The notes under the pieces: generated by a model
Told to the model about the DNA's origin: nothing
Seen by the model: only the letters and a program-made list of their open reading frames with translations
Databases searched by the model: none
Assembly: GCA_041751215.1 (NCBI GenBank)
Contig: JBGSXW010000002.1
Location: 3,123 to 67,122, forward strand
Source: Candidatus Saccharimonadales bacterium
Lineage (GTDB): Bacteria > Patescibacteriota > Saccharimonadia > Saccharimonadales > JBGSXW01
Length of the DNA stretch: 64,000 nt
Direction of reading: 5' to 3'
Position numbers and translations under genes: made by a program
Part shown: one piece after another, positions 9,262-24,990 of the stretch
Layout: each line of letters opens with the position of its first letter
How positions within the stretch are numbered: position 1 is the stretch's first letter

Positions 9262-9798
9262 TTACCTCTTATCGTGAATAAATTTATAGTATGGGGCTGA
9301 GGAGGCAGCGAAAGTACGACTACTGACTATGTTCAAACCTTTGACATTCATTTCGGTAATCTTCCATGCGCCTGTCTCGGTATTAACATCAGTCACAAAT
9401 GCTACGTGCCCCCAAAAGCCCTCATCAGTCTGATAGATGGCTCCCACTGCTGGCACATGACTAACTACATAGCCATCAAGTTCCGCTCGGTCATCCCAAG
9501 TGTTGGCATTACCCCAAGTTGTTGGTATTGGCTTGCTAGCCCACAGACGCTGAGCAAATGCCCAATAGGTACAGTTACCCCACTCGTACGTATCACCTGG
9601 TATTGGTCCGCCCATGTAAAACCCTTGCGTCTCAGCGTGTTCAGCACTCGGTGTTGAGATTAAAAACGATAGGACATCCTCACCCATTGAAAATACTGCC
9701 ATAACAGGTAGCGCAACTATAATCACTATGCTTGCTAGCACGAAACCAATCTGCTTTTTGGTAACGCCACTTATGGAGAAGATGAGAGCTGGGTTCAC
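9262..9798 (-). CDS. CHAP-domain peptidoglycan hydrolase (T4SS-associated)
   Basis: 178 aa with an N-terminal TM segment. GNCTYWAFAQRL (Cys) and WGHVAFVTDV (His) are spaced as in CHAP domains. Confidence 0.8.
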   Translation of the reverse strand: MNPALIFSISGVTKKQIGFVLASIVIIVALPVMAVFSMGEDVLSFLISTPSAEHAETQGFYMGGPIPGDTYEWGNCTYWAFAQRLWASKPIPTTWGNANTWDDRAELDGYVVSHVPAVGAIYQTDEGFWGHVAFVTDVNTETGAWKITEMNVKGLNIVSSRTFAASSAPYYKFIHDKR

Positions 9799-11558
9799 TT
9801 TTGGTATAGCTCCGCTGGATTAGTAGTGATGAGGGGGTGCTCTTTATCGGAAGCCACAACTTTAACGGCTACGTGGTTTTGGTCGGCAATAATTAAAGCA
9901 TCACCTCGCTCGCAAGTCAGTAGAAAATTTTGTTCGTATTCAGATAAATTAAACTCACTGACTACATTTCGTATGGTGGTTGTATCCTGTCGCATCAAGA
10001 TACGTAGTGCTGACTGAGAAGCAATTGCTCGCCCATACTCACTTTGTAGGAAGTCATTAGCTTGCTGAGAAATCATCGACACTCCCAAGTAATACTTGCG
10101 GGCGCGGCGTACTAGTCCTGATACGAACCGTGCACTTTGTTCGTGCTCGAGTAACAACCAGCCCTCATCAATAATCAGCAATCGCTTTTCCGGTTTGGCT
10201 TTCACTTGATTTTGGACGAAGTTAGACACGATCAGCATCATGATTGGCTGCAGGTTGGCAGGCATATCTTTGATATCAAAGATGATCAGACGGTTATCGA
10301 GTCTAATGTTTGTTGGCGAGTTAAAAACTCCGGCGAGCGAACCAGTAATGAATCTTTCCAGTCGTTCGCAAAGATGCAACTGTCCAAGCTTGTGAAGTTC
10401 CGCATAGAGGTCTTGTAGTAAAGGTTGTTCTTTCTTAACCTTCTTATATATTTTTAAAATTGCTTTATCGACCGATGCTTTCTCACGCTTGTCGAGTCCC
10501 TCGACCATCAGATCAATCAAGCCGGTTAGGTCTTGCACATGTTCAGATAGGTCGTTTCTAGTGTGGAAGGTGGTTGCCAGATCGAACGGATTAATCTTTT
10601 CTTTACTCTTAGCAGAAAGCTTTATGTAGGTACCTCCGACGGATTCTGTGAGTCGTTTGTACTCGCGTTCAGGGTCAATCACAATGACCTTCGTTCCTTG
10701 CATAAGTTGGCGTAGTATCTCTACCTTGGTAGCGTAGCTTTTTCCAGAGCCTGACTGCGCAAACACGATTGAGTTTGCATTATGCAGGCTAAATCTATCA
10801 AGGATAACGAGAGAATTGTTCGATTTGTTGACACCGTACAGAATACCCGACTCCTGTACGAATTCAGAACTCATAAACGGAAATGATAATGCGGCTGATG
10901 AGCTATCTAAGTTTCGCTTCTGGTTGAGTTGATCTTGGGCGCGTGGCAGTATGGATTGCAGTGCCTCAAGCTGTTGGTAACGAGCAGTCTTTGAGTAAAA
11001 CAAACGAGCGGATAGCGTTGTTTCCAGTAGCTTCGTCACTTTATTAAGTTCAACCAGCGACGGTGCACGTAATGATACATAAATGGACATTTGGAATAAC
11101 TTTTCTTGACCACGCTGAATTTTGTCACGCAACTCAATAGCCGATTCGAGCGGATCAGTAACCTCAGAGCCAACAATCTTACCGGCTCGTAACATTGCTC
11201 GTTTGGTCGATTCAAGCTCAGTAATCTTTCGGTGTAGTTTTGGCAGGGCTTGCAGAGCATTAACTTCGTGCAAGTGATAGCTAATATCGGCGTTATGACT
11301 GAAGTTAATTAGGGTATCGAGCCAGCCACTTGAAGCCACAAATGGATAGCCAGAAATATAAATCGTACGTATGTAGACGCCATCGATGCACAGGTAATCT
11401 ACCTGTTCTTCAAGTCCAGCATATGACAGCACGTCAAGTGCATCTTGCTCCCCAAAGGTTAAGGCTAGTTCCTTAGGACGTTCGTCTCGTTGCTTCTTCC
11501 ATTGTTTTAATTGGTCAATCGGATTAGGTACACCTTTTTGTTTAGTCTTCATTGTCAT
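9795..11558 (-). CDS. VirB4/TrsE-like conjugation ATPase (ATPase portion)
   Basis: 587 aa with Walker A FAQSGSGKSY and Walker B RLLIIDEGWLLL. It overlaps the CHAP gene start by 4 nt. Confidence 0.85.
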   Translation of the reverse strand: MTMKTKQKGVPNPIDQLKQWKKQRDERPKELALTFGEQDALDVLSYAGLEEQVDYLCIDGVYIRTIYISGYPFVASSGWLDTLINFSHNADISYHLHEVNALQALPKLHRKITELESTKRAMLRAGKIVGSEVTDPLESAIELRDKIQRGQEKLFQMSIYVSLRAPSLVELNKVTKLLETTLSARLFYSKTARYQQLEALQSILPRAQDQLNQKRNLDSSSAALSFPFMSSEFVQESGILYGVNKSNNSLVILDRFSLHNANSIVFAQSGSGKSYATKVEILRQLMQGTKVIVIDPEREYKRLTESVGGTYIKLSAKSKEKINPFDLATTFHTRNDLSEHVQDLTGLIDLMVEGLDKREKASVDKAILKIYKKVKKEQPLLQDLYAELHKLGQLHLCERLERFITGSLAGVFNSPTNIRLDNRLIIFDIKDMPANLQPIMMLIVSNFVQNQVKAKPEKRLLIIDEGWLLLEHEQSARFVSGLVRRARKYYLGVSMISQQANDFLQSEYGRAIASQSALRILMRQDTTTIRNVVSEFNLSEYEQNFLLTCERGDALIIADQNHVAVKVVASDKEHPLITTNPAELYQK

Positions 11559-12207
11559 CTCCTTTCTGTATGTACGAAGTATGCAGTAGCTGTAGGGCTT
11601 GGCTGGTGAGTGGCTGTATCTTTGCTTGTTCAGGACTATAGAAGCTATAGAACAAATCGAGAATTTCGAGGTTGTTTAGTTCTCGGCTGTGCATTCCGAT
11701 ACGTGCCAGACCCTTAGCAACGATATCCGCAGTTAAGTTAAGCCGTTCTTTGACGGATTCGAAGTCAGTTTTAGCGGTGGCGTTATACGGGATTATTACA
11801 TAGAAGTTGCGAGTTAAAATCTTGTTGGTGGTAATCAGCGAACGAATAAACTCATCATAGTGCTTAAGCTGATGCTTATAGATTTTCTCGGATTCATTTT
11901 CCAAGCGTTCTTGTAGATCGCTTAAATACTTATCCATGTCTATTTCACGGGTGCGAACTAAGATTTGCAAACTACTGCCCACTGAGTTTAAGAAGCTCTC
12001 ATAGGTATCGATGATGGCATCTTGCTCATCTTCACTTTTTAACTCAAAATTAACTGATGAAACGTGTAAGACCGCGCGGTACTGATTGCTAGGTAGAATC
12101 AGTACATTGTCACGTACACCTTTAATATCTATTTGGCTGCGCGCACTAACTCTCTTCTTTGATTTCTGTAAAGCGAACATACAGTTTTCCTTTCCGGTTG
12201 GTTTCAA
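11542..12207 (-). CDS. VirB4 N-terminal-domain-like protein (split VirB4)
   Basis: 221 aa. IDIKGVRDNVLILPSNQYRAVLHVSSVNFELKSEDEQDAII resembles the N-terminal region of Gram-positive VirB4 homologues. It overlaps the ATPase ORF by 17 nt in another frame. An alternative start is Met10 (12180). Confidence 0.5.
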   Translation of the reverse strand: MKPTGKENCMFALQKSKKRVSARSQIDIKGVRDNVLILPSNQYRAVLHVSSVNFELKSEDEQDAIIDTYESFLNSVGSSLQILVRTREIDMDKYLSDLQERLENESEKIYKHQLKHYDEFIRSLITTNKILTRNFYVIIPYNATAKTDFESVKERLNLTADIVAKGLARIGMHSRELNNLEILDLFYSFYSPEQAKIQPLTSQALQLLHTSYIQKGDDNED

Positions 12208-12661
12208 AACGTACCTTTGAGGCTGGATTATTTATGATATCCAGTGCTCGTACCGTATCGGCAATGCCAAGCTGCTGTAGAGTTGTTTCTCGCGCAGTAT
12301 TTGTAGCCTCCTGAGGTTCGTTTTCTTCAATAATTGTGTCGCGATATTGTTCACGACTTTTCAGTGTGTTCTTGTTAAAAACGTACAAGCTTGGCCGTAA
12401 ATTGTAGCGCAACACTATGACCAACCAGAGTAGTAAGATAGTGCCCTTAATACGGATCGCCATTGTCCAGAAAATAAAAGCAAGCACACCAATCAACACC
12501 ATTTTATAGGCAGCGTTGTTCATAAAGGGTGGCAAGACCACATACAGGAGACCTCCTGCAAAAACGGGCGTAGCAAGTAACAAAAGCTGAGAAAAGCCTA
12601 AGTTACCGGCAATACGGTCTTCAACAGTTGTAACTTGTGCGGGGACAACAGTGGCTTTCAT
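12146..12661 (-). CDS. PrgI/VirB3-like small membrane protein
   Basis: 171 aa. The N-terminal EDRIAGNLGFSQLLLL is followed by hydrophobic helices, and the gene sits immediately upstream of VirB4 as in Gram-positive T4SS. Confidence 0.55.
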   Translation of the reverse strand: MKATVVPAQVTTVEDRIAGNLGFSQLLLLATPVFAGGLLYVVLPPFMNNAAYKMVLIGVLAFIFWTMAIRIKGTILLLWLVIVLRYNLRPSLYVFNKNTLKSREQYRDTIIEENEPQEATNTARETTLQQLGIADTVRALDIINNPASKVRFETNRKGKLYVRFTEIKEES

Positions 12662-14131
12662 CTACTTTTTCTCCATAATTTTAGGTGGCTTAAGTTCTTC
12701 TTTGTTTAAGCGGGGGGCCTCGCTGGTAGTACCAGTCGGTGGGCGCTTGTCCAGATTTTGTTTTTGAGTTGCACGATTATTTGTATTACCGCTTATTGGC
12801 TGTTTATAATTTGCGCTTGTCGTTCTCTTACTGCTTGATGAACTGCTTGTACTCTTGCTACTGACGGCGTTTTTACGGCTACTGACTTTACTGGTCGTCG
12901 CGTTGGTAACGGCACGGCCCTTACTACCAAGATAGCTAATGCCAGTCATGAATTGGCTGCCAAGTTTACGTGCAGTTCGTGGTCCGATGCTGGCATATGA
13001 GAACTGCATCATTACGCCCTGAGTTTTGAGGAGCGCGATAATTGTTGCCAGCCCTGCTATCATGGCCATGAGAGGGTTTAATGTCTCACCAGGTGTTGCG
13101 ACAACCATGCCAGCAAACAGTGAGGCAGCAAGCAGCAGAATAATCACATGGATAAAGAGTACAAAAATGGTGGCAATATATGCTTTGATGGCAGTTACGG
13201 AAAAGTCTCGAAAGCCTGGAATTAACCATATCAATATGACAATTGGTGAAAGTACCGCTCCGATAAACAGTGTGACCAATCGCCCAACATAGTAAACCAG
13301 GAGTATCACAGCAAAAATTAGGAACACCAGCATCATGAGCAGACCAGCCACACCCTGTCCGCCAGAGCCCTCGACAACTTTAGTTAAAACTTCCCAGACT
13401 GTACCGGGTGCGCCAGCGGCATTGATAGCTCGAATCAACGCGTTAGAGAGTCCAATAATGCCATCGATGATGAAAATTGAGGTATTGAGGAGCATAAATA
13501 CTAAAGCAATCCGTGGCAATAAGTGTTTAAACTCGATTTCGTCAAAGCCAAACGTCGAAGCACTCATAATGTGGAAGCCCAACAGAACAATAACTAGCAC
13601 AAAGAGCGCATCAGCAATCCCCACCATCGCTAGCCATAGATTAAATACAGTCGAGTTATCGGCCATAAGTGGCGTTGCTTTGGTAAAGAAAGACAGAGCA
13701 GCCAGAAATGGCGTGGCTACGGTTTGAATTATATTATTAAGCAATCCGGTTACGGCCTTAATGAGAATATCTACCAGCCCATTTGAAGCAGGTTGTGGTT
13801 GAATTTGCGTAAGCTGTGGCAAACTTGAACTGGGCGTAACGGCGGAACTGGTATAAGCATGGGTTAACACTTCAGTAATAACAGTGGCAGCCAGAATAAT
13901 GATAAGCCCGAGTAGTGCATTGCGGATTACGCGTTTGGCATGGTCAAGATTCTCTGGTTTACCAGCACTAGTCATGTAATTAATACCACCGCTTACGAGA
14001 AAGAAAACACAGGCTAATGAGGCAAGCGCACTAAGCGTGCGAACAAGCGGGCCGATATACGATTGCATGACAGAGCCTGCCGCTGATGCGTCGGCTACAA
14101 GTGAAAGATTCGTAGTTAAAAGCTCGATCAT
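12662..14131 (-). CDS. VirB6/TrbL-like polytopic membrane protein with N-terminal pilin-like module
   Basis: 489 aa with many hydrophobic helices and a Ser-rich C-terminal tail. The N-terminal SGGINYMTSAGKPENLDHAKRVIRNALLGLII parallels the neighbouring pilin-like protein. Confidence 0.6.
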   Translation of the reverse strand: MIELLTTNLSLVADASAAGSVMQSYIGPLVRTLSALASLACVFFLVSGGINYMTSAGKPENLDHAKRVIRNALLGLIIILAATVITEVLTHAYTSSAVTPSSSLPQLTQIQPQPASNGLVDILIKAVTGLLNNIIQTVATPFLAALSFFTKATPLMADNSTVFNLWLAMVGIADALFVLVIVLLGFHIMSASTFGFDEIEFKHLLPRIALVFMLLNTSIFIIDGIIGLSNALIRAINAAGAPGTVWEVLTKVVEGSGGQGVAGLLMMLVFLIFAVILLVYYVGRLVTLFIGAVLSPIVILIWLIPGFRDFSVTAIKAYIATIFVLFIHVIILLLAASLFAGMVVATPGETLNPLMAMIAGLATIIALLKTQGVMMQFSYASIGPRTARKLGSQFMTGISYLGSKGRAVTNATTSKVSSRKNAVSSKSTSSSSSSKRTTSANYKQPISGNTNNRATQKQNLDKRPPTGTTSEAPRLNKEELKPPKIMEKK

Positions 14132-14690: not shown

Positions 14691-15054
14691 CTAACGGGTA
14701 AGGTACCTATCGGTGCGTCGATCATAAGCTTTTTGATCGCGCTTGATTTTTTCTTTGTGTTTTTCTGCCCAATTTACTAGGATGTCGGTAATCTCTAGCA
14801 ATTCAAATCCAATAGGAGTGAGCTTATACTCAACCTGTGGCGGTACAACTGGGTAGTGAGTGCGCTCAACAATACCATTGCGCTCTAATGACTTGAGAGT
14901 GTCAGTTAGAACTTTTTGCGTTACACCGGGCGTATACCTAATTAGTTCTGAATGGCGTCTTACCTCCGTGCCGAGTTGACGTATTATTGGAACTGCCCAC
15001 TTTCTCGACAGAATATATACTGGGTGGTGTTTTTATTGTCTGTTGACATGCCAT
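14691..15054 (-). pseudogene. HxlR-family transcriptional regulator with a +1 frameshift in an A5 run
   Basis: Not in the ORF track. The minus strand reads MACQQTIK, then after an extra A (T5 run at 15030-15034 on +) continues HHPVYILSRKWAVPIIRQLGTEVRRHSELIRYTPGVTQKVLTDTLKSLERNGIVERTHYPVVPPQVEYKLTPIG. The ATG-to-stop span is 364 nt (3n+1). Confidence 0.6.
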
Positions 15055-15080
15055 AATTTTAAAGCATGAGCAGCAATATC

Positions 15081-15095
15081 TGCAATTTAGTTGCA
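15081..15095. promoter_or_regulatory. Fur/Zur-box-like palindrome (one-mismatch copy)
   Basis: TGCAATTTAGTTGCA, about 26 nt upstream of the HxlR-like ATG. It has one mismatch to the boxes at 18388 and 21192. Confidence 0.45.
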
Positions 15096-15187: not shown

Positions 15188-16609
15188 TTATTTCCAAACG
15201 AGCTTAGAACCGCTAACCGTCTTTAAGACTTTTCCATCTGAGGTATTAATAATAGATGTTTGTACATTTGTGGGTTGCAGTTCACTTCCATACTTATCGT
15301 ACTCACGACCTTTAATTGCCGAAGTTTCTAAGATTAAGTATTGATCGTTTGGCGTGGTGCTGTAATTGCGCACCTCGTTGTCTTGGGTACTCACTCTATA
15401 GAGCTCTTTGTCGGCGCCCCATCGCTGTATTGCTACCGTGTACTCATAGCTGTAGCTGGTCACGGGAATATTAAGTAGTTTTATAACGCCCTCGCTATTT
15501 TGCAATAAGCGTATGCTTGTAATAATTGGTGTAGTCGCGCCAGTGTTGCGGGTGGTGTAGGGGTTTTTACTTTTCTTAGAGACATCAAGTATGGTTGGCC
15601 CCTCTCGGTAGTCTATAAAAGCTATCTTGCCACCGTTGCTTGAAGTATTGGCTACGCCAGACAAGTTACCTAAGGGGATTGGTTCGTGCTGTGAGAACAC
15701 ATCAATAAATAATGTGCCAGAGGTGTACGTTTCGGCCACGATTGTTGTTCCATCCGGCATAAATCTCCAATTACCGACACCCGTACGGACGTTACCAATA
15801 CCTTTTATCTCATCAAGTAACTTGGATTTAAAGTCATAGATGAACAAGTTGTAGGAATACTTTTGGTTTCCAGAGACAAACTTACTAGTAAACGTATAGC
15901 CTACAAATCGTCCGTCGCTAGAGGTGTGTAACTTATCGATTGTACCTTTGGTTTCAGGCAAAGAGATATTGATCGATTCTTTGGTTTTTAGATCATAAAC
16001 AACGAGACTGGGAGTACCTTGTTGCGCATCTTCGTCTATACTACTGACTTGACTGCTAATGAGCTTGTCGCCGCTGACAGTGAAATCGAGTATCTTCTCC
16101 GCGCTATAAACAACTTCGTCTTCGCCGTACAGAGAACCTTTAATAATTTGATCTTCTTCCTTTTCGGCAAATGCGTAGAGGTTGGAGGAATAGCCATAGT
16201 TTCGTTTCAGGTAGTAGTAATTGGAACCACCAGTTTTAAAACTTGATTCGTTGTTTGTGGTTCGGCCATTACGGCCGGTTATATCGTTTAATTTAACACG
16301 GTATGTAGTGTCCTCAAGCAAACGCTGCTTCAACTGAATAATTACCGATTCACCAGACGTAGTAACATTAAAGTCAGTATTTGGTTCAATATGTACCTGA
16401 GATTTATCAACGCTTTTGAGGGGCTGGTTGGCGCGCAGTACAATAGTTTGGTTGAGGTCTTTAGTCAAAGCTTGCGAATTATAGTCAATCTGCCGAATAC
16501 GAGGTCCACTAAATACGAGTCCAATGATACAAACGAGACTTATCACAGTGCAAACAGTTAGGACCCACAGCACCCTTTGCTTATAGGTCGTGGGTGGCTT
16601 AATAGACAT
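15188..16609 (-). CDS. membrane-anchored extracellular protein (Ig-like plus beta-propeller-like regions)
   Basis: Start taken at Met29 (MSIKPPTTYKQRVLW + TM helix) of track ORF 15188..16693. It is beta-rich and the last gene of the permease operon. Confidence 0.55.
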   Translation of the reverse strand: MSIKPPTTYKQRVLWVLTVCTVISLVCIIGLVFSGPRIRQIDYNSQALTKDLNQTIVLRANQPLKSVDKSQVHIEPNTDFNVTTSGESVIIQLKQRLLEDTTYRVKLNDITGRNGRTTNNESSFKTGGSNYYYLKRNYGYSSNLYAFAEKEEDQIIKGSLYGEDEVVYSAEKILDFTVSGDKLISSQVSSIDEDAQQGTPSLVVYDLKTKESINISLPETKGTIDKLHTSSDGRFVGYTFTSKFVSGNQKYSYNLFIYDFKSKLLDEIKGIGNVRTGVGNWRFMPDGTTIVAETYTSGTLFIDVFSQHEPIPLGNLSGVANTSSNGGKIAFIDYREGPTILDVSKKSKNPYTTRNTGATTPIITSIRLLQNSEGVIKLLNIPVTSYSYEYTVAIQRWGADKELYRVSTQDNEVRNYSTTPNDQYLILETSAIKGREYDKYGSELQPTNVQTSIINTSDGKVLKTVSGSKLVWK

Positions 16610-17324
16610 ACGGATCCTTTGGCTTATCGACGATACTGGCCTTACTTGGTTCGATAGCCAAGCGTCCCCCAACAACTTTAAAAGTTCCTTCAACTAACAC
16701 CCACTGATCGGCTTTATAGTCATTCTTCCATGATGATTTGTGAATCGGTACGCCAATTGGACGGGCATCGACAGCACAACAACTTATAATAAAGCGAGAG
16801 ACATAGAAATAGTTATCTGAACCCTCTTGATCGGGCGTAACAAAGCCGACCAGTGACACTTGCTTACCGGCAAAAAAAGCTTGGTCGTTGGTTTGAGCTA
16901 GCAAGTTTGCCCAATCTTTGACGCTTAACTGGGTGAAGTCATTACCACCAAACGGTGAAACAACGTCGGCTTTGGCTAGTTTTGTTAGGGCGTCGGTATT
17001 GGCAGCACTATTAATACCGCGCTGGTTAGCAATGTTGCTCGATAAGGTTGTCGGCTTAATTATCAGGAGCGTCAGCATGGAAATTCCGATGAGCAAACAT
17101 GCAAACAAACCGGAGTGATCATTTTTGTGATCTCGATTACCGGTAACTGCCCACATGAGCGCCAGCAAACCGAGACCACCAGCTATAAGTGTGAAAGTGT
17201 TATAGCGTGGATGGATAAATAAGCCGAGTTGCTTAGTAGCCCCGAGCCACAACGTAGCTACGGCTGCCACGGCAATTAAAATGACCCCGCGGTTATGATA
17301 CAGCCAGCGTATACTAGAACGCAT
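16599..17324 (-). CDS. TIGR03943/DUF1980-family membrane protein (partner of DUF318 permease)
   Basis: 241 aa with N-terminal TM helices and a C-terminal domain containing FIISCCAVDARP. It overlaps the permease gene end by 11 nt. Confidence 0.65.
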   Translation of the reverse strand: MRSSIRWLYHNRGVILIAVAAVATLWLGATKQLGLFIHPRYNTFTLIAGGLGLLALMWAVTGNRDHKNDHSGLFACLLIGISMLTLLIIKPTTLSSNIANQRGINSAANTDALTKLAKADVVSPFGGNDFTQLSVKDWANLLAQTNDQAFFAGKQVSLVGFVTPDQEGSDNYFYVSRFIISCCAVDARPIGVPIHKSSWKNDYKADQWVLVEGTFKVVGGRLAIEPSKASIVDKPKDPYVY

Positions 17325-18324
17325 AGTTCACTACCAATCCCAGGCAGGCACTAACTAAGAAAGTTACCAATATCACTGTACGTATGACGCGCTTGGTATA
17401 TGTAGTTCGCATGAGACTTATCATCTTGATATCAACAATTGGACCGAACACCAAGAAGCTGACTAATGAACCAGTTGTAAAGGTATTAGCAAAAGCCAGT
17501 GCAAAGAACGCATCTACGTTAGCACAAATTGACACGATAAATGCCAGCATCATCATAGCGAATATCGACCAGATCGGATCACCACCAAGGCTAATAAGAA
17601 TACTGCGTGGCACCATAACTTGCACAAATCCTGCTACAAAACCTCCAATAAAGAGCGCTGGCACAATAACATTGGCTTCACTGGCAAATATCTGAAAGCT
17701 TTGTTTGACCTTGTTGTGCTGATGCTTGGTTTTACGGTGATCTACTTTACAGGTAGCGGCGAACTCAGGCGTTAGTAACGCTTGCTGCTTTTGTTTGCCT
17801 GCAAAAAACCAACCAACGATATTGGCAATAGCAAACCCGCCCAACAGGCGCGCAATCAGAATTGTACTATCCGAACCAAACGCTTGTTGGGTGGTTATGA
17901 TTGTAATCGGATTAAGAATTGGTGCTGCCAGTAGAAACGTCAGCGACTCACTTACGGTTAGGCCTTTAACCATCAAGCCACGCGCAAGTGGTATATTACC
18001 GCACTCACAGACCGGTAAAAAGATACCCAAGAATGATAAGGCAATTCTGCGTGGTGTGGGACGTTTTGGTAGAAGTCTTAAGAGTAAATTTTCTGGTAAC
18101 CAGACTTGTACCAATATGGAAAGCGCAATACCAAGCAGTACAAATGGCAAGGCTTCGATTATGATGCTTGAGGAGAGCGTAATAAAGTCCTGTATCTTTG
18201 TTGGTACGGTAATCGCGGTATACCGATTCGAGAGAACTTTTAAGAGCAATAAAAGGCCGACCAGAGCCAGTCCCATCGCAGGGAAGCGTAGTCGGTTTGA
18301 TTGTTGTACGTGAACTAATGCCAC
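17314..18324 (-). CDS. permease, DUF318/ArsP_1 (YraQ-like) family
   Basis: 336 aa, polytopic, with the family signature PVCECGNIPLARGL. Confidence 0.75.
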   Translation of the reverse strand: MALVHVQQSNRLRFPAMGLALVGLLLLLKVLSNRYTAITVPTKIQDFITLSSSIIIEALPFVLLGIALSILVQVWLPENLLLRLLPKRPTPRRIALSFLGIFLPVCECGNIPLARGLMVKGLTVSESLTFLLAAPILNPITIITTQQAFGSDSTILIARLLGGFAIANIVGWFFAGKQKQQALLTPEFAATCKVDHRKTKHQHNKVKQSFQIFASEANVIVPALFIGGFVAGFVQVMVPRSILISLGGDPIWSIFAMMMLAFIVSICANVDAFFALAFANTFTTGSLVSFLVFGPIVDIKMISLMRTTYTKRVIRTVILVTFLVSACLGLVVNYAF

Positions 18325-18387: not shown

Positions 18388-18402
18388 TGCAACTAATTTG
18401 CA
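18388..18402. promoter_or_regulatory. Fur/Zur-box-like palindrome
   Basis: tgcaactaatttgca is the exact reverse complement of the 21192 box. It lies in the divergent intergenic between the permease operon (start 18324) and the His-rich ORF (start 18458). Confidence 0.55.
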
Positions 18403-18457: not shown

Positions 18458-18826
18458 ATGATACGAACAGATGGTGATATTCAGCACGGACTAGCTCATT
18501 TAATGATTGGTGAGGCTTTTATTGCTAATACGATTGAAAACGATCGCTTTTCGGCTGCACAGCTTGATCAGTTCTTTGGAACCTTTCGAGAAAGTCATAG
18601 AGGCGCGCTTGGTCAGTTTACGACGCGTGCTGCCGAGATAGTTGGTTATGATGAACATCATGAGCTAGACGACTTCGGCCCACACGGTAAGTTTGCAGGC
18701 AAATTATCTCTACGAGAGTCTGGCTTAGCCGTTGTTGAAACTGAACTTCATCATGCCGCCCCAGCAGGGCTTAACGAGGCTTTAAAAGCTTCTTGCGCGA
18801 CTGCCGTAGCCGTACTACGCGGCTAA
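18458..18826 (+). CDS. His-rich hypothetical protein
   Basis: Start taken at Met45 of track ORF 18326..18826, preceded by aaggtgaaag. Scattered His clusters (DIQHGLAH, DEHHELDDFGPHG, ELHH). Confidence 0.45.
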   Translation: MIRTDGDIQHGLAHLMIGEAFIANTIENDRFSAAQLDQFFGTFRESHRGALGQFTTRAAEIVGYDEHHELDDFGPHGKFAGKLSLRESGLAVVETELHHAAPAGLNEALKASCATAVAVLRG

Positions 18827-20503
18827 GGCTAGTGGTTGACGATTGCGAGTTAAAACTAAGAGTATGATCTCGCCAAGCACCTGGGCCATACTCATAGTTT
18901 TATTTGTGGATTGAGTGGATGAGAATTGAGAAAATTCGAAACTGTACTCAATACTGAGGTCTTTTCTGAGTCCATGCAAGATATCGTATGCTTCTTGGTC
19001 AAAGATTAGTTCTTGATCGTCTGAAAATTCCAGCATCTGTGCTAAATCCTCGTAAGTAAGAGAAAGTTTAGCGGCAAGTTCTTCAAGTTTTTCTTTGAGT
19101 GTGGGCGATAAGACTGCTAGCTCATGGGATTCCGTGGTGCCTACTCCCTTAATTAGTTCAAAGATGTCTTCAATGATTTCTTGTACCTCTGGTGCATCCT
19201 CTGGCTCAACAGCAGATATTAATTCCGCAACCACAGCTTGCTGAGCGGGCTTTAACTCTCGTTCTGGAATGACGTTTTGTTCAGTACTCGAAGTCCTGTC
19301 TGGCACTGTGAAAAGCTCTTGTGCGGGTTCTTCAACTTCACTTATTGTGAGATTGTTGGTTGCTCCGGCATCAACAGCTATATCCCACAAGCTTATCTCG
19401 TCATTTTCTGACAGAGCGATAGGTAGCTCGCCAGCTTCAAAGGTAAGATCTTCAACTTCACTTGATTCTTCAACCATAGTTTCGCTGGTCGTGAGAACTT
19501 CTTGCGTGAGCAAGTCAATGTTATCGACATCATTGCTATCAGCCTGTTCAATATCAACAGGTTCCATATCCTCTGATACTGACAGTGTATTAAATTCTAC
19601 GCTGCCCTCGGTTTTTTCCTCACCATCACCATCAGTAATCTCTGCTTGATTGGTTTCGATAGTACTTTTCTGTATTGGTTCCACGGCTTCGATAGCGTCT
19701 GTTTTGCTCCTTTCAACTGGTTTGTTAACCGCAGGTACTTTGGCTTCTTCCCGATTAACCTGTTCCGTTCGTTCGGCTATATTTTGTTTTTCCTTTTCGG
19801 GCATTGATTTGGTGTTACTCTCAACGACTGCTTGAGAGGCCTCGGTAGCATCAATACGTTGCCGTAGGGCTGCATCCATTTCGGGTTTAACGATGGTTGC
19901 TTGTTTGGCGATCTCTACTTCTACCGCAAGGCGTTGTTGGGCTTCTGTAGCATCTACAATCTGTTCTGCGATGGTTTCTGCCGCCGTTTTTTGTTCCTGG
20001 TGAGGTGCTTTTTCTAAATTATCAAATAAAGAATCGGCGTGTTTATCAGCTTGCGGCTGATTATGTTCGCAGTGTGCATCACAGACATGCGGTTTATGTG
20101 CTTCGTGCTGGTGATCGTCAAGTTCTTTTGCTGCTCTGTTGGCGGTTTCTTTATCGGCTGCTATCTTGGCTGGCTCAACTTTTGGTTTGGTTGTCTCGGC
20201 TTCAGGTTTACTGAGATCATTAAAGAGACTGTCAGACATCTCATCTGCTTTAGACTGATGGTGCTCGCAGTTAGGGCCGCAAACATGATCTTTTTCTAGG
20301 TCTGCAAAAAGATCATCACTCATTTCATTGGCTTGCATCTGCGAGTGCTCACAGTCTGGGGTGCAGACGTGTCCTTCAACCCCGTGTGCAGTTTCTAGGT
20401 GGGGGTGATGTTGCGTAGTCTCTGCTTGCTGTTCAACATGAGCCACAGCCTCATGAGCTTCGTGCTGATGGGCTTGCGCTAGAACTTCAGCATTTGCAGG
20501 CAT
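18815..20503 (-). CDS. acidic, His/Cys-repeat putative metal-binding protein
   Basis: 562 aa with a His-rich N-terminus and three repeats of HVCxxxCEHxQxxA(D/N)(E/K)xxDxLFxxL. It has a very acidic middle and a hydrophobic C-terminal segment. Confidence 0.6.
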   Translation of the reverse strand: MPANAEVLAQAHQHEAHEAVAHVEQQAETTQHHPHLETAHGVEGHVCTPDCEHSQMQANEMSDDLFADLEKDHVCGPNCEHHQSKADEMSDSLFNDLSKPEAETTKPKVEPAKIAADKETANRAAKELDDHQHEAHKPHVCDAHCEHNQPQADKHADSLFDNLEKAPHQEQKTAAETIAEQIVDATEAQQRLAVEVEIAKQATIVKPEMDAALRQRIDATEASQAVVESNTKSMPEKEKQNIAERTEQVNREEAKVPAVNKPVERSKTDAIEAVEPIQKSTIETNQAEITDGDGEEKTEGSVEFNTLSVSEDMEPVDIEQADSNDVDNIDLLTQEVLTTSETMVEESSEVEDLTFEAGELPIALSENDEISLWDIAVDAGATNNLTISEVEEPAQELFTVPDRTSSTEQNVIPERELKPAQQAVVAELISAVEPEDAPEVQEIIEDIFELIKGVGTTESHELAVLSPTLKEKLEELAAKLSLTYEDLAQMLEFSDDQELIFDQEAYDILHGLRKDLSIEYSFEFSQFSSTQSTNKTMSMAQVLGEIILLVLTRNRQPLALAA

Positions 20504-21157
20504 TTAGGCAGTAACTTTCTTTTGAGTGGTTAAGAATTCGTTAATATTTAGGCCGACACGGCTTTGTGCTAATAGCTTGATCCGTTCCATCTCACTATCC
20601 TCAACCTCTTTGATAAAGAAACTAAAGAATTGTTTCTTTGAGACAAAATAGGTGGTTATTAGTAAGCGTTGGTATGGTAATACCTCCACGCCAGACTGCT
20701 TGCGTGTCCAGTGCTCAATCTTTGGGGTATGGTCGAACAGTAGCGGGATATTCTTAGAAAAGACTTGCTTACCATCACGTTCTAGCCAGTGAGTGTAAAA
20801 GTTCTCCCAGGTGTCGTATTCAGCAAAAGCATGTGTTTCATCTGGCGTAAAGTTACCAAACCGGTTGCCAAGCTCTTGATTATATCGATCACGAGAAAAT
20901 GCCAAAAATTGCTCCACAGTTGTATCAGGTACATGCTTTACGAGATATTCCTTTATTTCCTTTTTAAAAGGATTAGCAAGCGTTATGGTAAAAGGCTGGA
21001 ACCCAAGCTCATCTGTGCCATTACGGCGCTGCTCAGCGTACTCAGCGTCGCCGACATGCAAAAAACTAACCACCTGCCAATCATGGAATCCGTCCTTGTT
21101 TGGCTTCTCGGTTGCAAAATCGTTCCAAAATAACTGAAATGAATCAAATACTATCAT
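20504..21157 (-). CDS. hypothetical protein (first gene of the operon divergent from the Fur-family gene)
   Basis: 217-aa ORF with no recognised motif. Its stop abuts the start of the 562-aa ORF. Confidence 0.55.
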   Translation of the reverse strand: MIVFDSFQLFWNDFATEKPNKDGFHDWQVVSFLHVGDAEYAEQRRNGTDELGFQPFTITLANPFKKEIKEYLVKHVPDTTVEQFLAFSRDRYNQELGNRFGNFTPDETHAFAEYDTWENFYTHWLERDGKQVFSKNIPLLFDHTPKIEHWTRKQSGVEVLPYQRLLITTYFVSKKQFFSFFIKEVEDSEMERIKLLAQSRVGLNINEFLTTQKKVTA

Positions 21158-21191: not shown

Positions 21192-21206
21192 TGCAAATTA
21201 GTTGCA
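21192..21206. promoter_or_regulatory. Fur/Zur-box-like palindrome
   Basis: TGCAAATTAGTTGCA (arms TGCAA/TTGCA), about 20 nt upstream of the Fur-family ATG in a divergent intergenic region. Confidence 0.55.
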
Positions 21207-21226: not shown

Positions 21227-21703
21227 ATGGATCAGATTGATAGATTAAAATCTCTACTAACCGAACGCGGGTACAGTATTACTAAGCCTCGCTTAGAGGT
21301 CTTCCGTGTCTTAGCAGCGAATGAGGAGCCACTGAATGTAACTGATATTGTGGCTCGTCTCTCTACTAAGGTAGATAAGGTAAGTATTTACCGCACGATT
21401 GAGCTGTACGAAAAGATTGGCATTGTGCACCGCGTATGGACCGGGTTTAAGAGTAAGGTTGAGCTGAGTGAAGCATTTTCACCTCACCACCATCACTTCA
21501 CATGTATTAAATGTGGAAAAACAACCGGATTGCGAAGTGAGGCACTAGAGAAAGAACTAGAGAATCTTGAGAGTGATCAACACTTTAAGCTGACACACCA
21601 CTCAATTGAACTAAAGGGCTTTTGTGAAGATTGTATAAGGCAAGTTAACATAACTCACGAAAAAGGGAGGGTTGCCCATGCCAGCGGTGTACAAGCCACG
21701 TAA
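21227..21703 (+). CDS. Fur-family metalloregulator (probably Zur)
   Basis: Start taken at Met13 (MDQIDRLKSLL). Winged-helix N-terminus, then HHHFTCIKCGK and GFCEDC metal-site motifs. Confidence 0.85.
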   Translation: MDQIDRLKSLLTERGYSITKPRLEVFRVLAANEEPLNVTDIVARLSTKVDKVSIYRTIELYEKIGIVHRVWTGFKSKVELSEAFSPHHHHFTCIKCGKTTGLRSEALEKELENLESDQHFKLTHHSIELKGFCEDCIRQVNITHEKGRVAHASGVQAT

Positions 21704-23814: not shown

Positions 23815-24990
23815 TTATGCCCCTGGCTCAAAATCTACTAATAATACTTCTGACACGACATCATTGTTTGAAACGGCTTCGCCGGTAGCAAACAGGCTGT
23901 TAGCGCTCGAGAGTGTAGCGGCGACTGTCGTGAAGTTTGTGAGGACTGAAGTATTGTAAAACAGTGTGCCAACACAGTCTTGAGTGGTCGCTCCGGTTCG
24001 TGTGATGCTCACCTCTGCTCGCCACGAACCAGCCACAGAAGTAGGAAGAGCTCCACTGTCAAGGATGGTCGTTGCACCAAACTTAATTCGGATTCGCTTT
24101 GCGTTGGCGTTGTTTGCGAATGTGCCCTGAAAACGACCCCGAACAGTGTCCCCGTTAGTAGCTAACGTGTTTGCTATAACAGAGAAGGTTTGCAGGTTAT
24201 CTTCGCCGCCACCGACATTGCCAACCGCAGTAACGCTATGTCCGATACGGCCAGGGAGACTGGCGTAAGACCCCAAAATGTAGATGTTAGCCATAACGCC
24301 CGCCCTTAGTCTGCCAATGAACGCGTCGGGTGCGGTCGTGCCAGCGCCAAATCCTATAAAGCCAACCGAGCCAAATGCACTGGCGATTGCTATTGAGGGA
24401 TGAGCGTCGGTACTGTTTTTATACAAAGTCAGACGTATGTCGTCAGCAACCCCACCATTAAAGCTCTCGATAGCCACTCTTCGCCCTCCGCTGTTAGTGA
24501 ACGTTTGGCTGGTTGTTCCAAAAGCTTTTTTAGCGGCACCAGACACGGCAATGACATCATCAGAATCCATAAGCACGGCATTGCCATCCTCAACACCCAC
24601 AATAGTGTCGGTCGTGTCAGGGTTAGTTGCTGCTGGCAGGTCGGCAATTTCCGTTGCGTCGTCTAATACGGCATCGATGTCAGCTTGTGTCGCCAGGTCG
24701 CTGGTGTCAGCAATACCGTGCACATCGTTCGTTGTATTGCTGTGAGTGGTTAAGTTGCTAGCGACGGTCGCTGCTGCTCCAGCCGAGTCAAAGTCACCGG
24801 TATCAGCTGTTGCGGCGCTGCCTAGGCCAAGGTTATTGCGAGCCTGCGGTGCTGTAGTCGCGCCTGTTCCCCCTTTGGAAATGCCGACTCGTTTCAGCGA
24901 CCCGTCGGGGTTATGGGACGTTTTTAAAAATGCATTGAGGATCTCACCCCAGTTTCCAGTATCTCCCCCAGGCTTTGGCAGTCTTGGCAT
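23815..24990 (-). CDS. phage tail-fibre-like protein
   Basis: 391 aa. The N-terminal LPKPGGDTGNWGEILNAFL and GGTGATTAPQARNNLGLGSAA resemble N-terminal motifs of phage tail fibres; the remainder is Gly/Thr/Ala-rich. Confidence 0.55.
   Translation of the reverse strand: MPRLPKPGGDTGNWGEILNAFLKTSHNPDGSLKRVGISKGGTGATTAPQARNNLGLGSAATADTGDFDSAGAAATVASNLTTHSNTTNDVHGIADTSDLATQADIDAVLDDATEIADLPAATNPDTTDTIVGVEDGNAVLMDSDDVIAVSGAAKKAFGTTSQTFTNSGGRRVAIESFNGGVADDIRLTLYKNSTDAHPSIAIASAFGSVGFIGFGAGTTAPDAFIGRLRAGVMANIYILGSYASLPGRIGHSVTAVGNVGGGEDNLQTFSVIANTLATNGDTVRGRFQGTFANNANAKRIRIKFGATTILDSGALPTSVAGSWRAEVSITRTGATTQDCVGTLFYNTSVLTNFTTVAATLSSANSLFATGEAVSNNDVVSEVLLVDFEPGA

Follow-up and report, generated by a model that had tools for sequence, protein, structure and literature searches.

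A gene in a 64,000-nucleotide stretch of a Candidatus Saccharimonadales genome (assembly GCA_041751215.1, contig JBGSXW010000002.1, positions 3,123 to 67,122; hereafter the window) encodes an acidic protein of 562 amino acids (aa) with three short Cys/His units. Judged by sequence and profile searches, it is a member of an undescribed protein family, so far found only in Saccharibacteria. The gene is coupled to that of a 217-aa partner, and a conserved operator-like palindrome adjoining a Fur-family regulator gene lies upstream of the pair. The reading that we favor, at a probability of roughly 0.5, is that the 562-aa protein acts as a Zur-repressed cytoplasmic zinc acceptor, buffer or chaperone that would be made when zinc is scarce. 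To our knowledge, almost nothing is known about how metals are acquired and allocated in candidate-phyla-radiation bacteria, whose genomes are smaller than 1 Mb.

A modular Cys/His protein

The gene and the parts of its product are listed here, with the basis for each (pLDDT, predicted local distance difference test).

18815..20503, minus strand: gene of the acidic Cys/His-repeat protein, 562 aa; open reading frame (ORF), composition and 16 family representatives
20384..20470, minus strand: His-rich leader, aa 12-40; composition, with N-termini His-rich in nearly all full-length members
20291..20386, minus strand: repeat unit 1, aa 40-71, HGVEGHVCTPDCEHSQMQANEMSDDLFADLEK; sequence, with a modelled helix at 55-67 after the Cys motif
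20207..20302, minus strand: repeat unit 2, aa 68-99; sequence, with a modelled helix at 83-95
20009..20104, minus strand: repeat unit 3, aa 134-165; sequence, with a modelled helix at 149-164
19808..19984, minus strand: long predicted helix, aa 174-232; AlphaFold2, 10-residue block mean pLDDT 64-83
19262..19750, minus strand: acidic, poorly conserved linker predicted to be disordered, aa 252-414; pLDDT ~33, variable in alignment A8
18845..19249, minus strand: conserved C-terminal helical domain, aa 419-553; AlphaFold2 and family alignment A8

The ORF begins with ATG and its translation has a computed pI of 4.35; the ORF, the leader and the three units are present exactly as a preliminary description of this DNA had given them. 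That description also spoke of a long acidic part, and the composition bears it out: Asp and Glu account for 21.9% of all residues, and between aa 251 and 450 each 50 aa hold 13-15 D/E against 0-7 K/R. The HVCxxxCEHxQ motif starts at aa 45, 73 and 139. All six Cys of the protein fall inside the three units, and 21 of its 23 His lie in the first 170 aa. By comparison, a single H.C...C.H pattern was seen in 22 of 200,000 composition-preserving shuffles of the protein.

The units had been called near-identical, which overstates their likeness: over 32 aa their pairwise identity is 47-56% in protein and ~57% in DNA. More than half of the residues that are identical between units are encoded by differing codons, and no long DNA repeats were found. 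Because of this divergence, the units are best read from their sequences as old duplications that have been kept by selection. An assembly artefact or a recent duplication is ruled out by the same DNA-level divergence. The sequence also agrees letter for letter, over 13.7 kb, with a second assembly made from public reads, which may have been the same ones.

The AlphaFold2 model, built with a 16-sequence alignment, has a mean pLDDT of 55. It places a helix after each Cys motif (10-residue block means ~57-77), and its C-terminal domain mostly reaches a pLDDT of 80-91, falling to 46-68 at aa 451-470, 491-500 and 521-540. A Foldseek search of the model against PDB gave no match. The hydrophobic C-terminal segment mentioned in the earlier account does exist, but it comprises only ~13 residues with a maximum Kyte-Doolittle value of 1.1 and is modelled as the last helix of the helical domain. 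Neither its length nor its hydrophobicity suffices for a membrane span, and a C-terminal membrane anchor is thereby ruled out.

A protein family without a described relative

The impression that the repeat belongs to no described family withstood comparison with curated libraries. Specifically, the whole protein matched nothing in Pfam, NCBIfam, PADLOC or PHROG, its N- and C-terminal halves matched nothing in Pfam or NCBIfam, and a Pfam scan of 16 family members was equally empty. A profile of the unit searched against PDB reached a best E value of only 0.016, which is noise, and the full-family profile returned nothing meaningful there.

Relatives do exist, and the ORF is conserved among them. 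An exhaustive HMMER profile search of 1.84 billion representative sequences returned 16 family proteins at the cut-off of E <1e-3. A word-indexed search found the protein itself and one relative at 37% identity, and the same kind of search with an N-terminal profile brought up weak motif sharers only. Pattern-limited scans of genome and metagenome collections added one homologue with four units, in a Candidatus Saccharimonadales metagenome-assembled genome (locus L002).

Full-length members have a common architecture of a His-rich leader, 2-5 units, a variable acidic middle and a conserved C-terminal region. The unit consensus is HG-x-x-G-H-V-C-x3-C-x-H-x-Q-x-x-A-D-x-x-A-D-x-L-F, and that of the C-terminal region is YEILxGLxKxLSxEYSxEF ... 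LGQLIL (alignment A8). Proteins with the conserved C-terminal domain are 440-640 aa long. Units occur in 14 of the 16 representatives, the exceptions being a 201-aa fragment and a 440-aa protein that lacks the N-terminus. In repeat-bearing members, nearly all Cys (every one in 7 to 9 members) and most His sit within the N-terminal repeats. None of the family members has an N-terminal hydrophobic signal.

Each unit had been credited with a Cys2His2-type ligand set. This holds for the three units in the window but not throughout the family, in which several members have lost or swapped a His or Cys. Together with a copy number of 2-5, these swaps fit metal ligands and a variable binding capacity rather than disulfides or a fixed fold, and metal ligands are therefore favored on the basis of the aligned sequences.

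A conserved operator and the metal it points to

The regulatory elements and the permease genes around the 562-aa gene are as follows.

21227..21703, plus strand: Fur-family regulator, 158 aa from ATG; PF01475, E 3e-20
21192..21206, no strand: operator-like palindrome TGCAAATTAGTTGCA between the Fur-family gene and the 217-aa gene; position conserved in relatives
18388..18402, no strand: second copy of the operator-like palindrome, separating the 122-aa and ArsP_1 genes; found there in L001, L002, L009 and L021 as well
15081..15095, no strand: third exact palindrome, upstream of a frameshifted HxlR-like gene; pattern match in the window
17314..18324, minus strand: ArsP_1/DUF318 permease with a VCEC motif; PF03773, E 3e-57
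16599..17324, minus strand: TIGR03943/DUF1980 permease subunit with a CCAVD motif; TIGR03943, 149.7 bits, above cut-off
15188..16693, minus strand: Big_5/propeller-like membrane-anchored protein, 501 aa, last gene of the permease operon; library scan, position kept in L002, L014 and L021

Three exact matches to the palindrome TGCAA-N5-TTGCA are present in the window, where 0.17 would be expected, and none of 100 shuffles of the window reached three. All three copies are intergenic and lie within the metal cluster. The half-sites of the copy at 21192..21206 form the -35 hexamers of both divergent promoter-like sites, that of the Fur-family gene and that of the operon comprising the 217-aa and 562-aa genes. 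Its position is kept in L002, L010, L011, L012, L014, L019 and L021, and the box lies upstream of the partner-target operon in all eight loci whose upstream region was covered; in relatives it also precedes the 122-aa and permease genes. Aligning 20 sites from ten loci yields the consensus ATTGCAA-N5-TTGCAAT, a box of the 7-1-7 type, and the places that it occupies are the same across divergent genomes. The putative Zur box of the earlier account can thus be confirmed as a conserved operator-like palindrome in front of this operon, with Zur as its probable ligand. Repression through promoter-overlapping Zur boxes is an established mechanism (PMC8000910).

The regulator has two CxxC pairs, CIKC and CEDC. 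In NCBIfam it scores 68.8 bits with the Fur model and 52.4 bits with the Zur model, whose cut-off is 167, and the PerR match is also sub-threshold; in PDB its Fur matches reach E 3e-15, its Zur matches about 1e-9. The assignment to zinc rests on regulon content because the regulator sequence is no closer to Zur than to Fur. Specifically, the box in L021 precedes a znuA-znuC-znuB-ArsP_1-DUF1980 operon (9271-13564) whose ZnuA has His at three positions (EPHDYE, DPHFW, TSHDAF), a pattern which we take to mark members specific for zinc and not for manganese. L014 has the box between the gene of a His-rich ZIP transporter (2751-3731) and a Fur-family gene. The same box before znuABC with a three-His ZnuA and before ZIP suggests that the regulator is probably Zur, as had been proposed, although Fur models score as well or better and all matches stay below threshold. 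From the content of the regulon we are fairly confident that its metal is zinc.

A different metal would require the regulator to be a genuine Fur or to sense Mn, Ni or Co, with repeats that bind Fe(II), an iron-sulfur cluster bridging units, or Ni/Co. The better Fur matches of the regulator speak for this reading, CxxxC pairs with His would be able to hold iron-sulfur clusters or Ni, Fe might bind to the acidic regions, and ZIP transporters are broad in specificity. We nevertheless give it a small chance: the box controls ZnuABC, whose binding protein has what we take to be the zinc-type three-His pattern and not the His2-Glu-Asp pattern of manganese and iron, and the ArsP_1/DUF1980 pair is under the control of the box as well. 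Genes for siderophores, Feo, Suf or ferritin were not seen beside any box in the loci examined. Additionally, the regulators lack a His that the best-matching Fur structure has in its DNA-binding domain, a position that is presumably a sensing-site ligand in Fur and PerR.

As an observation in its own right, the znuABC-ArsP_1-DUF1980 operon and ZIP under a common box in relatives give a first outline of a Saccharibacteria zinc regulon. A search of the literature on DUF318, DUF1980, TIGR03943 and Saccharibacteria together with Zur found nothing specific, bar one Shewanella study in which a DUF318 relative was required for zinc tolerance (10.1101/072470).

Two partner genes and a recurrent neighborhood

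Two small genes flank the 562-aa gene directly.

20504..21157, minus strand: upstream partner gene, 217 aa, whose stop codon abuts the ATG of the 562-aa gene; homologue clusters and AlphaFold2
18458..18826, plus strand: convergent gene, 122 aa, whose 3' end overlaps the 562-aa gene by 12 nt; alignment A6

The partner and the 562-aa gene stand as a pair in 11 of 11 loci (the window, L001, L002, L009, L010, L011, L012, L014, L019, L020 and L021), in which the partner stop and the target start usually overlap by 4-8 nt. The partner family comprises 40 homologue clusters with lengths of 215-225 aa. Every source name is 'hypothetical protein', and the three names that carry an organism all point to Saccharibacteria or Patescibacteria, including Ca. 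Mycosynbacter amalyticus (P0056). AlphaFold2 models the 217-aa protein with a pLDDT of 94.6 as two beta-alpha-beta-alpha-beta-beta-alpha halves. Foldseek found no PDB match for this model and, in BFVD, half-domain matches to uncharacterised phage proteins that are unconvincing; going by the model, the partner may have a new fold. Its family has no conserved Cys, no radical S-adenosylmethionine (SAM) motif and no other evident catalytic motif.

The 122-aa gene is present in eight of the 11 loci and is always convergent to the 562-aa gene, with a 3' overlap of 4-15 nt in most of them. This overlap could allow antisense interference. Invariant residues of the 122-aa family are H10, H14, E66, H67, D71, E87, E94 and H98 (alignment A6), and the protein may be a small metal-binding protein. 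Curated family library scans gave nothing usable for either small protein, weak QueF_N and Otubain matches in 2-4 of 37 partner sequences being treated as noise. A PDB sequence search of both was without meaningful match, and neither has a signal sequence.

The wider neighborhood recurs as well. A Fur-family gene adjoins the module in the window, L002, L011, L012 and L021 and lies ~3 kb off in L014. The operon of ArsP_1/DUF318, TIGR03943 and Big_5 genes adjoins it in the window, L002, L009, L014 and L021, with the Big_5 gene of L009 beyond the contig end. The preliminary description had put forward co-occurrence with Zur and the DUF318/TIGR03943 pair as a check; a Fur-family gene and the DUF318 (ArsP_1)/TIGR03943 pair are seen in the loci of relatives.

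The tight coupling to a conserved partner of unmatched fold can also be read differently. The 562-aa protein could be a zinc-stabilised scaffold or regulator, in which the Cys/His units are structural knuckles while the acidic region and an ALAA-like C-terminus make it a hub or a protease-controlled starvation switch. The large disordered acidic linker with its conserved C-terminal domain would suit such a role, as would the ssrA degron-like ends: Ala is the last residue in 11 of the 16 members, five of which close with Ala-Ala and three with ALAA (P0001, P0012, P0014 and others). We consider this rather improbable, since swapped ligands and 2-5 units per protein are easier to explain by capacity than by a fixed structure, and no DNA-binding, enzyme or adaptor domains were detected. 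Separately from this question, the Ala-ended C-termini resemble the ssrA/ClpXP degradation tag and could make the stability of the protein regulated.

Another role for the partner would follow if the 562-aa protein were the multi-core precursor of a ribosomally made metallophore, whose units would be excised and modified, perhaps through the 217-aa protein. In favor of this, the flanks of the repeated units are conserved, P0017 even having three identical 36-aa copies, and the partner fold has no known match. Yet a length of 440-640 aa and a conserved C-terminal domain speak against a precursor, no protease, exporter or known maturase is conserved nearby, and the partner has none of the catalytic motifs named above. 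The chance of this being right is very slim.

A proposed role in zinc shortage

The favored model, a cytoplasmic zinc acceptor, buffer or chaperone, would operate as follows. A Fur-family repressor, probably Zur, would bind the palindrome, covering the -35 elements of two promoters, its own and that of the 217-aa/562-aa operon. When the metal becomes scarce, the repressor would leave the DNA, and the 217-aa/562-aa pair, the 122-aa protein and the importers would be made together. The importer in the window would be ArsP_1/DUF1980, to which relatives add ZnuABC and ZIP under the box. Each [H]-x-C-x3-C-x-H unit, together with the His residues directly upstream, would make up a single small Cys/His site where an amphipathic helix begins, so that the ion load of the protein would be ~3, and that of relatives 2-5, or about one per unit. 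The protein would bind imported zinc tightly, lower free zinc at the transporter exit and hand zinc to client proteins. In turn, the acidic disordered linker would tether the binding units to the C-terminal helical domain, which probably docks to a partner, for which the 217-aa protein, being translationally coupled, is the obvious candidate. A cytoplasmic location is proposed because the protein has no signal peptide.

A bolder form of this model, on which we would bet against ourselves, takes the three proteins as a cytoplasmic, lineage-specific zinc-shortage module of the ultra-small epibiotic Saccharibacteria, made up of a multi-site Cys/His acceptor held on a long acidic tether, a partner with a fold unseen in PDB and a small His-rich protein. 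Such a module would do the job of COG0523 GTPase chaperones or would even take zinc from the host cell.

Several points weigh against the proposed role. The family architecture, the synteny, the conserved operator and the regulon content are observed; that the protein binds metal, prefers zinc, stays in the cytoplasm, docks to a partner and serves as an acceptor or chaperone is inferred, and sequence does not distinguish between storage, capture and chaperone roles. The AlphaFold2 model is weak over the Cys/His motifs, with a pLDDT of about 50-77. The ligands are not invariant: P0022 and P0024 each contain one unit in which His substitutes for the first Cys, P0013 and P0017 lack the His that precedes this Cys (variant HGHEG[L/P]C), and in P0020 Thr stands at the position of the last unit His. 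The regulator scores at least as well with Fur as with Zur, everywhere below the family cut-offs. The znuABC and ZIP genes under the box, on which zinc specificity rests, are found in relatives and not in the window, and ZIP and ZnuA-type systems can carry other metals. Neither the 217-aa nor the 122-aa protein gives a functional clue in library or structure searches, and the 122-aa gene is absent in three of the 11 loci. Finally, it is not obvious how a cell would benefit from making a multi-site zinc binder during zinc shortage.

Alternatively, the protein could work outside the cell, as an exported or surface zinc scavenger without a classical signal that leaves, for example, through a C-terminal signal and type IV secretion or a pilus. 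It would feed the importers with outside or host zinc, in functional likeness to the streptococcal Pht proteins or Candida Pra1. Its co-regulation with importers is compatible with this idea, as is a conserved C-terminal tail that combines a short hydrophobic helix with basic and small residues; a type IV secretion cluster adjoins the locus in the window, and Saccharibacteria are epibionts. However, signal peptides and membrane spans are absent from all family members, type IV secretion genes do not adjoin the module in the other loci, and the coupled 217-aa and 122-aa partners are also without signals. We regard export as distinctly improbable.

Relation to known metal-handling proteins

The proposed zinc acceptor resembles several known systems in function and fails their defining features. 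Pht proteins are large, have multiple short metal-binding motifs, are co-regulated with zinc importers by a zinc repressor and serve zinc acquisition. Several copies of a short motif and co-regulation with zinc importers recur in the 562-aa protein. Pht proteins, however, have HxxHxH motifs, are exported surface lipoproteins and are under AdcR (MarR-type) control, whereas the 562-aa protein is built on HxCx3CxH units, lacks a signal peptide, stands under a Fur-family operator and, as seen from the lack of a Pfam match, shows no sequence similarity to them. By eye it contains no HxxHxH, an HxHxxH (HQHEAH) being seen instead, though no motif search was run.

The COG0523 (G3E GTPase) chaperones ZigA, YciC/ZagA and Zng1 are cytoplasmic and Zur-repressed and are thought to give zinc to clients in starvation (10.1101/594382, PMC5007448). 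Their Cys/His-rich metal sites, location and control correspond to what is proposed here, but they are P-loop GTPases with a CxCC motif, and library scans revealed no CobW or P-loop match in the 562-aa, 217-aa or 122-aa protein. Bacterial metallothioneins (SmtA/BmtA) are likewise cytoplasmic Cys/His zinc binders that hold several ions per protein. At ~55 aa they form a single compact cluster, and their usual inducer is metal in excess, whereas the 562-aa protein is ten times larger, modular, has two Cys per unit and is predicted to be shortage-induced. It matches no Pfam metallothionein model and has six Cys in 562 aa. On these comparisons of sequence, the 562-aa protein is outside all described families, despite its functional resemblance to Pht, COG0523 and metallothioneins.

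Two further classes are more distant. The copper storage proteins Csp1 and Csp3 are helical and bind soft metal ions with CxxxC pairs on helices; many Cys line the core of their four-helix bundle and store Cu(I), in contrast to a single CxxxC at each helix start, with added His, a Fur-family regulon and no Pfam match. Precursors of ribosomally synthesised and post-translationally modified peptides are short and have maturation enzymes, a protease and an exporter nearby, whereas the present protein has 562 aa and no such conserved neighbors.

The core string HG-x-x-GHVC-x3-C is common to the units and to P0010, P0011 and Thioalkalivibrio CynA-like proteins. These matches are weak (E 0.5-3) and short, and the proteins differ in having signal peptides, unrelated contexts and no amphipathic ADxxADxLF helix; the resemblance suggests a shared motif at most. 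The Thioalkalivibrio proteins are CynA-like ATP-binding cassette (ABC) binding proteins with HGAEGHVCGPGCQHHH in a long N-terminal extension before the twin-arginine signal (L003 9914-11404, L006 347-1801 and L007 9887-11377, with a cyanase gene downstream in L006). They came up in the collection scans and were discounted as a resemblance in motif, a 16-aa string being all that they have in common with the family. P0010 and P0011 (L016 2641-2976 and L018 815-1171) are small signal-peptide proteins with repeats of the form KDHVCTxxC...HVYAHGEKGHVCTAxC and constitute another uncurated HVCxxxC motif family. Their context looks like Bacteroidota, with a Por_Secre_tail gene nearby; P0011 adjoins a DUF6789 gene in L016 and L017, and an extracytoplasmic function (ECF) sigma factor gene is also near in L016.

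The locus offers a Fur-family operator with a small, defined regulon of importers and three proteins that are uncharacterised. It also brings a new modular Cys/His motif, present in different copy numbers in different species, and a partner whose fold is predicted with confidence and has no convincing counterpart in Foldseek searches of PDB and BFVD. Should the zinc reading be true, the 562-aa protein would represent a GTPase-independent type of starvation-induced zinc-handling protein, and the module would provide a marker set for zinc stress in co-cultures of Saccharibacteria and their hosts.

Other features of the window

The gene for a Big_5 protein with propeller-like (PD40/TolB-type) repeats that ends the permease operon has counterparts in relatives at L002 13878-15293, L014 4161-5495 and L021 13554-14945. 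Its product may be an extracytoplasmic capture component of the ArsP_1-DUF1980 permease. Beyond it, a gene for an HxlR-type winged-helix regulator (14691-15095, minus strand) carries a frameshift in an A5 run (MACQQTIK / HHPVYILSRKWAVPIIRQL...), and the third palindrome lies ~30 bp upstream of its ATG. The sequence of this region is identical in the second assembly (L008).

Between 350 and 14481, a serine recombinase gene and a type IV secretion set (coupling protein, VirB4-like ATPase, TrbL-like protein and TrbC pilin) adjoin the metal cluster, which suggests an integrated conjugative element. On the other side, GC content rises from ~44% to 50-57% between 22891 and 30000. This segment may be foreign or phage-derived DNA, and a 391-aa protein encoded at 23815-24990 has weak matches to tail-fibre PHROG families.

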